Assembly: GCA_951406725.2 (NCBI GenBank)
Contig: OX597816.1
Coordinates: forward strand, 46,872,001-46,936,000
Length of the DNA: 64,000 nucleotides
Reading direction: 5' to 3'
From: Octopus vulgaris
Lineage: Eukaryota
A model generated the notes under the pieces. That model was not told where the DNA came from, made no database searches, and saw only the letters and a program-made list of their open reading frames with translations. Of the stretch, positions 28,081-63,730 are shown piece by piece. The position numbers and the translations under genes were made by a program. The number at the start of each line of letters is the position of its first letter. The stretch's first letter is position 1.

Positions 28081-28315
28081 TATTTCTTTATTACCCACAA
28101 GGGGCTAAACATAGAGGAGACAAACATGGACAGACATAAGTATTAAGTCGATTATATCGACCCCAGTGCTTAACTGGTACTTAATTTATCAACCCCGAAA
28201 GGATGAAAGGCAAAGTCGATCTCGGCGGAATTTGAACTCACAACGTAACGGCAGCCGAAATACCGCTAAGCATTTCGCTTGACGTGCTAACGATTCTGCT
28301 AGCTCGCCGCCTTAT
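28081..28315 (-). mobile_element. Family-B SINE, full length, 14-bp TSD
   Basis: ttcaaagaaatacc at 28067-28080 and 28316-28329. Confidence 0.9.
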
Positions 28316-58246: not shown

Positions 58247-58658
58247 TTTAACTGGTCTTTCAATTCCTACTACCAGTAATACAACCACTGGTAGTACTGA
58301 TTCTACTACAACCACAGCCTCCTCCACCGCCTCCACTACCACCACCACTACTTCTACAGAAGCCACCAACACATCCGCTACTGCTGGCTCTGCGGTGAAT
58401 TCATCTGACAAGCCGGCTACGACTGCTGGTGAGAACACCTCCTCCTCTCCCGCCACCACAACTTCTACCACATCATCTACTTCTCCTAATATAACTGGTG
58501 GCACCAATACCACAGCCAGCGGGGATTCTAACCCTCTTGGTGGTAATACCAGTGCTGATGCATTCAGTAATTTGATGGCCCAAATGGTACAGATGATGGC
58601 CAGTGGTCAAATGGGAAATAATCCAATGACTAGTGGTTTACTCGGCACAGGACAAATG
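58247..58658 (+). CDS. UBQLN1: Ubiquilin exon 12: long Thr/Ser-rich linker plus helix DAFSNLMAQMVQMMA
   Basis: ttctcttacag acceptor, ATG|gtaggt donor; phase 2 to 0 joins exons 11 and 13 in frame. Confidence 0.9.
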
Positions 58659-59798
58659 GTAGGTGTTCTATATTTCATTTCTTGGAGTGATCTTGAATGT
58701 TGTGTGTTAATTGTTGGCATTACTCATAATTACCTTTCTTTCATTGACATTATATGCATACATGGCTATATTTTATAATGTATATATGCTTTGCAGCCAT
58801 GTAATTTTGGGTTCATCCCACTGCGCAACATTGTGGCTGAGAGCCTTTTTTCTTTTATTTACCATATGTGGTCTCAGGCCCATCATGAAGCAATGTATGT
58901 AGATGACATTCCATGTCCCATATCCATAGGTTGCAGCCTGTCCTGGTTTTAAAATGTGGACAGTGCTATGCATCCATGAACCCACATCTGGCTTACGTGG
59001 GCGTATTGGTGCAGGGTTGATCCTAACCTAGACGCCAACCCCAGTTGGTGAGTTGCAAAAGGCACTGGAACCTGCCAGACTTCAGCTGAGCAAGCCCAAG
59101 AGGCACATAAACATGATCGTGATAGCATAGTTTTTGATTGTGGTTGAATATTGAACCCAGTAGTTAGCGATTAACAATGGTTCAAAATAGTATTCCTCTG
59201 CACAGAGCAGTAGCCTGTTCATCTCCAGAAGAAGCATCCAGCTGTAGCACTTCCCCAGGGTGAGCTTCAAAGTTCCATCATGTACCACCAACCTGCATGG
59301 ACTCCAACTTTTAATGACACTTGGATGTCATATGAAGTCTGGACCGCTCTCAAAGGGACATTGCATGAAATTACAGCGCTTTACCCAATTGAACTCAGGC
59401 TTTCGGTGTTGTTAGCTTACCCAAGAACCAATTTGGTATTATTGCATTTTTCTAATAAAACTCCTACCATTGGTTTAAGCCCTCTTACCACAATTTTTAA
59501 TGGACCATCTTCTACTTTAGTTCTGAGTTGACCAGTGTATTATATGTAGAATCAAACTGAAACTATGGAAATCTCCCCCTCTTTTTATTTCATCACTTCT
59601 TTTTTTTACTCTTACACTTGTTTTTCTTGGAATTTTGTTCACCTTTTCTTAATTTTTTTCCCTTTTCCCAAAGATGTTGTTTACATTTCTTGTTCACACT
59701 TTGGCTAGTCACTGTACTTTTGAAGAACTTAATAAAAAAAAATGATACTTGTAAACAAGTAAAGGTTGATGACAGGAAGATCATTGTTGTAAAGTACC

Positions 59799-60087
59799 TA
59801 TTTCTTTATTACCCACAAGGGGACAAACAAGGACAGACATAGGTATTAAGTCGATTACATCGACCCCAGTGCGTAACTGGTACTTAATTTATCGACCCCG
59901 AAAGGATGAAAGGCAAAGTCGACCTCGGCGGAATTTGAACTCACAACGTAACGCCAGACGAAATACGGCTACGCATTTCGCCGCCTTATGAATTATATTG
60001 TGGCAGCAGTGAGATTCGAACCCACGCCTCCGAAGAGACTGGTGCCTAAAACCAGCGCCTTAGACCACTCGGCCACGCTACCATCTG
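59799..60087 (-). mobile_element. Composite tRNA-Leu + family-B SINE insertion with 13-bp TSD
   Basis: gttgtaaagtacc at 59786-59798 and 60088-60100 brackets tRNA (60001-60082), 12-nt spacer and SINE (59799-59988). Confidence 0.8.
60001..60082 (-). tRNA. tRNA-Leu(TAG), 82 nt, probably a retroposed copy
   Basis: GGTAGCGTGGCCGAGTGGTCTAAGGCGCTGGTTTTAGGCACCAGTCTCTTCGGAGGCGTGGGTTCGAATCTCACTGCTGCCA: full cloverleaf, long variable arm, anticodon TAG, intact A and B boxes, G-U pairs in acceptor and T stems, no adjacent T4 terminator. Confidence 0.9.
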
Positions 60088-60270
60088 GTTGTAAAGTACC
60101 ACCTCAAAAGAGTTCCTGTCCAATGAATACTAACATTGAAGGAAATGAATGTACTATGCTCTTTGCTGCTTTCTTTTCCTTTGTTTTGTTCATCTTCAAT
60201 TTCTTGGAATAAATGGAATTTGTCTCTTGATGGAGCTCACCTTTGAATTTTTTAGCAGAGACAGCTTTAT

Positions 60271-60650: not shown

Positions 60651-60735
60651 GTTCAACCTCCTGATCAGCGCTTTGGACCTCAATTGGAACAGCTTGCAGC
60701 AATGGGATTTGTGGATCGAGAAGCTAATATTAGAG
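60651..60735 (+). CDS. UBQLN1: Ubiquilin exon 13, UBA: VQPPDQRFGPQLEQLAAMGFVDREANIR
   Basis: ttttctag acceptor, G|gtagtg donor; QLEQL.AMGF..REAN signature. Confidence 0.97.
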
Positions 60736-61319
60736 GTAGTGTTTCTAAGTGTACTTCTGTTAGCTGTGTTGCAAAAAGTATATAACTGCATGACTTTTAG
60801 TTTGGGTTCTGAAATTTCTAGATGGCTAACTAAATTCGAAGGTTAATGTAAATCTAAGTTAACCTAGTTTTCCAAATTCAAATACCGGTGTGGATTTGGT
60901 CCCTTCATTTATTATTTAAATTTAATTTGTATTTATATTGATTTTTTTTTACTAAATGGTGCAGTGTTTATTTTTCAATAAGTTTGATATCAATATCACA
61001 GAGCAAGTTCACTACTCAGCAGATTGCCATTTATCCAAGTTTTTCATTGTCTACTCTGTGAGGTGTCACATTCTGAGACCTTGTCTCAATTCGATGAAAG
61101 TGGGTGGGAATTGCTCTTAAGCAAATGAATACATAGATATGACTCTGTATTTTTTCTTATTAAGGACAATGGCAAAGCAGAAGTTTTAGTAAGGCCAGAC
61201 ATGTTACACTATAGTTGAGTTGTTTCTGCTTTTCCTTCGTTCAGCTTCATCAGGGAGGGTGTGGCTCTATAGTTTGGGTATACAGACAGTACAGCTGGAG
61301 ATCAGTTATATTGATTATA

Positions 61320-61666: not shown

Positions 61667-61728
61667 CTTTGACTGCTACCCTGGGTGATGTGAATGCTGC
61701 CATTGACAGGCTTTTACAACAGAGATGA
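61667..61728 (+). CDS. UBQLN1: Ubiquilin exon 14, end of UBA: ALTATLGDVNAAIDRLLQQR*
   Basis: cttcag acceptor; GDVNAAI.RLL signature; TGA at 61726-61728. Confidence 0.97.
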
Positions 61729-63730
61729 AGAGCAACAACATAAACTTCACCACCACTGCCACCACTACCACCGTCTCTCCATCTTTTGTTGTTGGTTAAT
61801 TTAACTTTTCCAAATTCCAGAAAATTTTAAATTAAAAAAAAAAGGACTACTAATTAAAAGAAACTCAATTCATCTGCAACTACTACTACTACTACTATTA
61901 TTAATAATACTCTTACTTCTACTACTTCTACAGCAAATACAAAGAAGGGCTGTTACTATTACAGCAGCTCTACTTTCCACAACTGGTGGTGAAAAAAAAA
62001 AAGGGTTCTTGTTGCTCTGGCTTGATCTTATAAACAATGATTTTGACATCTGTTACCAAGGTTACCTGTGTTATAAAAGAATGCATTTTGTTCTCTGCTC
62101 ACGCACACACGAACACACACATACACACACGCACACATAGGCATCTATATTTAACAATTACTTTCGGCTGTTATTATTATTAGTTTGATCCCCTCCAAGA
62201 TAAGTCCCATTCCCTTTTTCAGTTTGTTGCCAATCTGAGGACACCTGCACGAAAAGACAACTCAGTTTTCTTAACTTCCTTCCAAGTCTCTTCACAATTT
62301 TTCTTACTTCCCTTTATCTATAATTTTTACTCTCTCTCTCTCTCTCTCTCTTCCTTTCTCTCTTCTCCCTTAAATTCTAACAAATCTCTTATTTTAGTTG
62401 TCTGTCCTTTTATGAACAGGCTAATGACAAAAAAAAAAAAGATCAGTTTGTTCTCTCCCCCTCCCCCAATATATTGATGCAACCTCTAATTCAGTGGTTT
62501 ATCATTGGTCTGCTAGCTTGACAGATAATTAGTTGCTTCTGCTTTACTTTATTTCCTCTTACACTAATAGTGTGTGACTCCCCCGAAATAATTTTATAGC
62601 CAGCTCTTTTTGAGAGACATCGACAGGTGGTTATCTTGAAGACTGCTTTTTTTTTTTTAACCCCCTCCTCCAACACCTAAATCAATGAAATCTGTCCGCT
62701 ATTTCTTAGAAAACAAATATTTAATAATTAGATCTGAAGGAAGTTTAAGTGTCATAGCAGATTCTTATCCAAATCTGCATAGTCCTTGGGTATTTCCCTG
62801 TGATATATATATACTATACTGCAAATATGAACATTTACATCATATTTTTAAATACACACATGCAAGCATACATTCACACAGATGGACATGGACATGAACT
62901 CTTATTATTGAATCATATTCTTTTATATTACAGGAATACTTTCTTTAAGATCGGTCTTATTAAAAAAAAAAAAATTTAATGGAGTAAAGAAAAACGGGAT
63001 AAAATGACAGCTGATTTTATAAAAGAAGAAAAATTTCAAAAATAAAGCTATGGGACTCCTGCCTTGGACAAGTTTCTACTCCTCCTTTTTAATTTGCAGA
63101 AAATTGCATTAGCTTTGAACTGGAGCAATAAAATATATTAAATCTTATAAAAATTTAGAAGATTAGTTGAAAACATATTTATGCAATCAAACATCATTAG
63201 CAGAAGAATACACAGTATTAAAATAAAAGAAACCCAGATAAATAATTGCCATCATAACCATTTGGGTCAAGAAACTAGAAATATTCCTTTGGTAATATTT
63301 TTTTTTTGTAATTTGTTTTATTTGTATTTTTCCATTTTTCTTTGAACTGATGAAGGAAAAGAACTTTGATGGTGGCAGTGATGGATTGGGTGAGGTTTGA
63401 ATATGTTAGGTTTTGTTGACCAAACCATTGACTTTTTGAGTACTGTAAATTGAGAACATCATAGATCCAGTATTCAAAAGGTTAAAACGAGAAAGATGAA
63501 GATGAAAAAAAAAAATAAAAAACAAAGGTATGTGCAAGGGTCTCAGGTTTTGTGTGTAATCAATGTATAAACACCATTACTGTTTACCTGAAACATTGCT
63601 CTTTTCCCTGTTCCATATTTTCCCAACCAGATTGGAGAAAAAAAATCCCAATGAAAGGAGATTAAAAGAAAGACTGCTCTGAGGCATCTTTCCTGTACAC
63701 TGATTTTTTTTTTTTTTAAGAAAGAATAAA
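61729..63730 (+). other. Probable ubiquilin 3' UTR (end uncertain)
   Basis: AU-rich sequence after the stop with no obvious interspersed repeats; several AATAAA candidates (about 63041, 63127, 63223, 63513, 63725). Confidence 0.5.

Follow-up and report, generated by a model that had tools for sequence, protein, structure and literature searches.

A tRNA-Leu/SINE chimera inserted as a single unit in the Octopus vulgaris genome and its relation to other fusions of Pol III transcripts with retroposons

Architecture of the insertion

The locus lies in a window of 64,000 nucleotides of Octopus vulgaris DNA (contig OX597816.1, positions 46,872,001 to 46,936,000), by which we mean the whole stretch that was analysed and whose numbering is used throughout. 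The insertion is in antisense orientation in an intron between the plus-strand exons 58248-58660, 60652-60736 and 61668-61730. These exons presumably belong to a ubiquilin-type gene, the last ones reading like a UBA domain; a Pfam search with the 28-residue exon beside the locus returned no family. Read along the minus strand, the unit consists of a 13-bp repeat (60100-60088), five nucleotides (60087-60083), a tRNA-Leu(TAG) (60082-60001), a spacer of 13 nt, a SINE (59987-59799) and the second copy of the repeat (59798-59786). A first-pass annotation of this DNA had listed a 5-nt leader, an 82-nt tRNA-Leu(TAG) without encoded CCA and a SINE, all bracketed by a perfect direct repeat and retroposed together, and each of these elements is present. 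The two repeats match exactly, cannot be extended and occur only twice within the 64-kb window, and the chance of finding a 13-mer at such a position is about 6e-7 for 30 candidate positions; the tRNA and the SINE were therefore inserted in one event, within one target site duplication (TSD). No duplication surrounds the SINE alone at this locus.

The tRNA part is of full length with both A and B boxes, is called by ARAGORN and matches the full Rfam model with 52.3 bits; no CCA is encoded at its 3' end. It is identical at 80 of 82 positions to a gene elsewhere in the genome (L033), which exceeds the SINEBase mark (60% or more identity to a tRNA across 60 nt). One of the two differences, C62T, is private and was not seen in any of the other 39 matches listed, 29 of which were read, so that the sharing of diagnostic changes with a source copy, by which SINEBase recognises copies of a SINE transcript, is not seen here. 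A run of four T residues lies inside the anticodon arm and is common to every other Leu(TAG) gene seen; T4 alone is for this reason not a sure terminator, and only runs of five or more argue against transcriptional read-through. The insertion is possibly a working extra tRNA gene. The five nucleotides that separate it from the TSD are likely to be the pre-tRNA 5' leader, the alternative being untemplated bases. Elsewhere in the genome (G000:C14:40.81-40.86 Mb; L034-L041, L048, L052-L056) tRNA-Leu(TAG) and tRNA-Leu(AAG) genes are arranged in tandem, with SINE and LINE pieces inside the repeat unit.

The spacer can be divided into ten nucleotides ending in TT (60000-59991) and three junction bases (59990-59988), the latter being either untemplated or 5' flank of the SINE; the bases 5' of SINE heads vary among the 74 copies tallied. 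An exact pattern of the acceptor end plus the ten nucleotides has seven matches genome-wide compared to one for the control, and only the focal match runs into a SINE of the focal type. At four further loci (L064, L065, L066, L067) the last 11-15 nt of a tRNA-Leu are followed by the same ten nucleotides with one to three terminal T residues, and what comes next is the head of a different SINE at L064 and L065, a short retroposon tail at L067 and an unassigned stretch at L066; the remaining two matches (L062, L063) have no tRNA upstream and were dropped. The trailer of the gene at L033 differs from the focal one by a single base and ends in T5; leader, body and trailer of this gene are found fused to a short tail at L032. 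Because the same stretch is joined to other partners at four more loci, the spacer is identifiable as a pre-tRNA 3' trailer, with the final TT a likely residue of the oligo-U end. None of the seven genome-wide matches is an intact source gene with the exact focal trailer, and the source gene would thus have diverged, been lost or be unassembled. The spacer holds no T4, as the first-pass annotation had noted, but it measures 13 rather than 12 nt and a T4 run is present elsewhere in the unit. The transcript of roughly 290 nt that it foresaw also has to be revised: the first T-run downstream of the unit, a T9 at 59742-59734, is the predicted Pol III stop and gives any read-through RNA an expected length of about 349 nt.

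The SINE belongs to a short-tail subfamily, has a B box at 59942-59930 and is up to 98% identical to its nearest copies; the window holds 16 matches to this SINE. Two segments that the copies at 28081 and 61320 possess are missing from it: 29 nt with the A box, between two GGCGA words (the join is at 59982-59978), and 15 nt near the tail. The tail gap is found in 27 of the 29 nearest copies, while the A-box segment is kept in 28 of them. Genome-wide, the join without the A box has 37 exact-pattern loci against 41,214 intact ones (pattern of equal length); 30 of the 37 were read, including the focal copy. None of the 29 others has a tRNA within 140 nt upstream, and by eye none combines both deletions or carries the focal trailer; their tail type varies, and four are partial duplications instead of clean skips. 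The skipped segment is predicted to fold as a hairpin flanked by the 5-nt repeat. The 15-nt gap is thus a subfamily trait and the A-box loss a rare, recurrent hairpin skip, and since such skips are found elsewhere without a tRNA, both deletions are unrelated to tRNA capture and were ruled out as chimera-specific marks. Both segments are indeed missing, as had been proposed, but the shorter gap is no lesion of the focal copy. The further proposal that the tRNA complements a damaged promoter finds no support: all 29 other A-box-less copies that were read do without a tRNA, and other fusions of tRNA, 5S or U6 to the focal-type SINE keep the A box.

On the minus strand the TSD begins with GGTA, a tetranucleotide that many copies of the same SINE also show at their 3' end. 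It is probably a priming microhomology, in line with the link between TSD starts and RNA tail ends described in the sections consulted of PMC6007223. Many SINE copies (L002-L030, L068-L097) are followed by a GGTA sequence that represents either the start of the TSD or a tandem restart inside the SINE, and short target duplications are common at SINE 5' junctions in the same loci.

Contigs from two other organisms are 99% alike in the flank and enter the SINE tail for 18-20 nt at the same site, a stretch below the bridging threshold of 31 letters, which suggests that the insertion may be shared with both. The contig of a third organism ends before the insertion site, and raw reads did not cover the site. 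No empty site was seen in four sequencing runs beside the tRNA part, where repeat contigs swamp the tRNA-side junction. Measured against the nearest copies, no private change is found in the SINE part; the tRNA part, set against the gene at L033, has one.

Fusions of Pol III transcripts to retroposons across the genome

The focal insertion is not isolated in kind. A pattern of a tRNA-Leu end, 5-25 nt and GGCG yielded 19 matches versus four for the control; 17 of these lead through widely differing trailers into a SINE head, a short tail or a LINE-type end, and two (L103, L110) were dropped as chance matches lacking a T-run or partner. Seven of the 17 tRNA-Leu copies are of full length and ten are cut at the 5' side. 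Focal-type SINEs preceded by T5 were found at 188 loci, the first 100 of which were read, and at seven of these a Pol III RNA precedes the head: four tRNAs, one 5S and two 3' pieces of U6. Rfam confirmed the tRNA-Thr, -His and -Asp and one of the two U6 pieces; the fourth tRNA, of Lys type, is an ARAGORN call only and has an apparent intron retained. At this locus (L270; G000:C4:161696440-161697020) the tRNA with its apparent 16-nt intron is followed by a trailer, T7 and then the full SINE, and it is possible that it is the copy of an unspliced pre-tRNA. An 8-bp TSD surrounds 5S plus SINE at L158, and at L307 an older SINE is split around a whole tRNA-SINE unit; in four of the eight cases with this SINE the unit borders on SINE sequence in tandem, and the stretch examined shows no TSD. 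At L154 (around 1400-1505) a sequence of about 100 nt with A- and B-box-like motifs and a T6 end is fused to the SINE head; it has no Rfam match and perhaps represents a Pol III RNA that still lacks annotation.

A second source of fusions is an element of about 50 nt (L117-L146, L177-L225; solo at L072 and L135) whose 5' start is fixed and which comprises two hairpins and ends in a short simple repeat. Another SINE has a tail related to it, and its joins to Pol III RNAs are very frequent. Every one of the 80 loci in which T4 precedes this short tail was taken and 79 were scanned with Rfam, of which 20 passed the gathering threshold: 14 tRNAs (one tandem duplicate included), four 5S and two U6. 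A 3'-anchored match, with references taken partly from the same loci, found tRNA 3' ends at 30 of the 80 loci compared to none of 150 control windows, after three of 33 rows had been dropped as 5S-internal. TSDs of at least 8 nt were found for seven of 19 short-tail chimeras, as against 60 of 342 cross pairs (p=0.03), and lie for the most part in microsatellite sequence, so that TSD support in this set is weak. Fusions of 5S to the tail have at least 40 dispersed matches (L226-L245), and the 19 that were read out of 20 retrieved show 18 different junctions, as expected for independent events; one junction was seen twice, with different tail ends. An amplified family of 5S/short-tail chimeras is accordingly unsupported. 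Most of the 5S copies read are a 3'-extended variant cut at varying points. Beyond tRNA, 5S and U6, Rfam scans of the loci and of the whole window at E-value level returned only microsatellite-driven microRNA matches.

Between RNA and partner most of the sister chimeras keep a run of T4-T10. Fusion loci were selected by T-runs and exact motifs, and these counts therefore speak to the presence and diversity of such joins, not to genome-wide rates. The focal one-off is one of dozens of tRNA, 5S and U6 fusions in the genome, with differing junctions. The short tail is also joined to pieces of other SINEs, from their 5' or 3' part, whose end is a T-run (L117, L122, L127, L136, L202, L211), which would record Pol III stop sites and show module swapping between SINEs, and a tRNA-Thr/tail chimera is found in tandem with a spacing of 318 bp (L208, L209; G000:C22:18.90 Mb).

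Many of the 5'-cut tRNA pieces begin directly after position 58. Five of the ten 5'-cut tRNA-Leu chimeras begin exactly at position 59 and seven at 59-61, and the short-tail set contains five more short tRNA pieces starting at 58-59, one of which is L104 (placed at 56 by the local aligner and at 59 by ungapped scans). Reverse transcriptases are stopped by m1A58 (PMC8599865, in the part drawn on here), and in human pre-tRNA-iMet the same modification promotes end-trimming and can hence precede it (bioRxiv 2026.08.28.747798, likewise). We infer that a 5' cut after position 58 marks m1A58. By eye, three of about 36 chimeras that read through this position have a T there (L111, L129, L139), a possible misreading mark; the focal copy was read through with A58 intact. 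A much broader reading, which we put forward as a conjecture and would not yet favour, is that capture of nascent Pol III transcripts by retrotransposon enzymes is routine in the germ line. Complete tRNA genes, each with its leader and promoter and often with a terminator of its own, might in this way reach new sites by the hundreds. Some of these could be live tRNA genes and a few, such as the focal copy with no terminator before its SINE tail, proto-SINEs; the truncation points would then be a fossil map, with m1A58 already present on trailer-bearing pre-tRNAs of many isotypes.

Origin of the join and competing explanations

The origin that we regard as probable is a one-off event in which the reverse transcriptase of a LINE, copying SINE RNA at a nick, jumped from the 5' end of the SINE to the oligo-U end of a terminated but unprocessed pre-tRNA. 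Synthesis would have been primed on the SINE tail at the nick, to which the TSD and the recurrent GGTA point. The A-box hairpin would have been skipped between the two GGCGA words, a deletion that is plain at the locus and whose timing could predate the event. An end-to-end jump onto the oligo-U 3' end of the pre-tRNA would then have been followed by copying through to the leader and by closure, of which the 13-bp TSD is the visible product. The observed features are a single insertion, ends of RNA type (no CCA, a trailer), a unique junction and many sister events, and the same process is likely to have produced the many fusions in which a tRNA, 5S or U6 is attached to one of several SINE heads or to a short tail. 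In the loci examined, three LINE 3' fragments of RTE-like type end in other tails, and none shares the tail of the SINE.

Of the competing explanations, read-through transcription is the one that the first-pass annotation had chosen: a SINE that had inserted into a tRNA-Leu terminator at another locus would have been transcribed with the tRNA by Pol III and the fused RNA retroposed once, the source locus having since been lost or being unassembled. The mere TT between tRNA and SINE fits this idea, T4 runs inside Leu(TAG) tRNA genes are evidently read through, and in the predicted fold of the 349-nt RNA the acceptor stem is broken (pair probability about 0.03), which could shelter such an RNA from trimming. 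A source locus with the focal junction was however not found with the tRNA-junction query or with the genome-wide trailer and A-box-less patterns, the same trailer is attached to other partners with varying numbers of T residues, and the loss of the A box is not linked to tRNA capture. Most sisters retain T4-T10, and those with T5-T10 between their parts cannot have arisen in this way. We consider read-through unlikely for these reasons.

Ligation of the pre-tRNA 3' end to the 5' end of the SINE RNA by an RtcB-type activity, with subsequent copying of the joined molecule, leaves the same DNA as a template jump and has a precedent in U6/L1 RNAs of human cells (PMC6789731, as far as the portion used extends). 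Short-tail partners nearly all begin at one fixed base, as the end of a cut RNA would. RtcB requires a 2',3'-cyclic or 3' phosphate and a 5'-OH according to the same portion of that source. Pre-tRNA oligo-U ends carry a 3'-OH, and the 5' end of a SINE RNA is a triphosphate. These ends do not suit the enzyme; the partner starts at the SINE's own 5' end, and SINE 5' ends often show additional junction bases and local duplications, as jumps of the enzyme do. Ligation is in our judgement improbable too.

A different question is whether the focal unit stands for more than itself. It could have founded a young composite SINE family headed by a tRNA, or be one of its rare members, given that its internal promoter is intact and is separated by no T5 from the tail downstream, which is intact too, and that the SINE part, free of private changes relative to its nearest copies, is young. 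The genome searched comprises 2.8 Gb in 227 contigs. With the whole unit as query the tRNA part was matched only by itself, the 39 other best matches beginning at or beyond query base 116, inside the SINE; the tRNA plus junction query spanned both parts at one locus in the best 40 of 125 candidates. The composite was likewise found once among the seven genome-wide trailer-pattern matches and once among the 30 A-box-less loci read out of 37, and neither the trailer nor both deletions were recognised in the 29 others read. The single copy, which rests on whole-genome pattern counts and on a DNA search scored for its best 40 of 125 candidates, is far from the at least 100 interspersed copies that SINEBase expects of a family. 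A junction shared with no other copy in the genome-wide patterns and the tRNA-junction query is also what an independent origin leaves behind. The new tRNA-driven retroposon family suggested by the first-pass annotation is thus not supported, the trailer-SINE junction having been found at one locus, and by that annotation's own reasoning the unit becomes a one-off template-switch chimera; a founder role is very unlikely. Two separate events, in which a SINE came to adjoin a resident tRNA gene, would accord with the density of SINE copies (16 in the window), but can be dismissed because the 13-mer would have to arise by chance (about 6e-7) and abuts both ends, with no duplication around the SINE alone.

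With the template jump as the preferred origin, the focal copy reads as a dead-end proto-SINE for which no daughter copy was found. The idea that it captures a SINE at birth survives only in part: no amplification is seen, and what remains is a failed or putative founding step that has been repeated many times in the genome. The lack of daughters could be explained if the intact cloverleaf were trimmed by RNase P and RNase Z, with loss of the tail, although the thermodynamic fold with its broken acceptor stem points against this.

Significance and comparison with known systems

The class of chimeras matters more than the focal locus. The founding step of SINEs is usually deduced from finished families, and here dozens of independent head-tail joins are available, unamplified, in one genome. 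It becomes testable why nearly all such joins fail, for which a retained terminator and trimming of the intact cloverleaf are candidate reasons, and what a winner needs. The same insertions offer a possible route for the dispersal of tRNA genes, call for caution in counting tRNA genes and may serve as a DNA record of the order of pre-tRNA processing.

A founding step in which template switching adds a small-RNA head to a LINE-type tail has been proposed (Kojima 2015, PMC4494074; Kojima 2018, PMC5786205), and SINEU and other families treated in the parts consulted of these papers were amplified from master copies, whereas no amplification of the focal unit is seen. Dimeric SINEs, in the SINEBase description available to us (PMC3531059), likewise join two Pol III-type modules head to tail; in contrast, the left module here is a near-perfect copy of a cellular tRNA gene and the composite exists as a single copy. 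Human tRNA/LINE-1 chimeras also place a tRNA and a retroposon in one TSD, there of 9-19 bp (Law and Burns, PMC11838501). In the sections of that study used here they number 21 loci and typically comprise antisense tRNA halves, for which twin priming is proposed, whereas the octopus chimeras are in sense, 3'-anchored, equipped with a trailer and often of full length. In the literature searched, which left out most subscription journals including the original octopus SINE papers, we found no description of sense pre-tRNA/SINE chimeras.

The closest parallels are the U6 chimeras, which occur with L1, L2 and RTE LINEs and with the SINEs Mon-1 and AnolisSINE2 (Doucet et al. 2015, PMC4476161). As far as the consulted part of that paper goes, the two systems share a Pol III RNA in sense orientation 5' of the 3' part of a retroposon, a single TSD and independent copies. 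The U6 join is made at the oligo-U end, and the focal join at a trailer with TT for which the source gene was not found. Unlike U6 chimeras, the octopus fusions have mostly unprocessed pre-tRNAs of many isotypes as 5' partners, with leader, trailer and at one locus an apparent intron, in addition to 5S, with a near-full SINE or a 50-nt tail as 3' partner, and they occur in an invertebrate host. Taken on its own, the focal locus is by this analogy a chimera of the ordinary type, which would work like the U6/LINE and U6/SINE template-switch chimeras.
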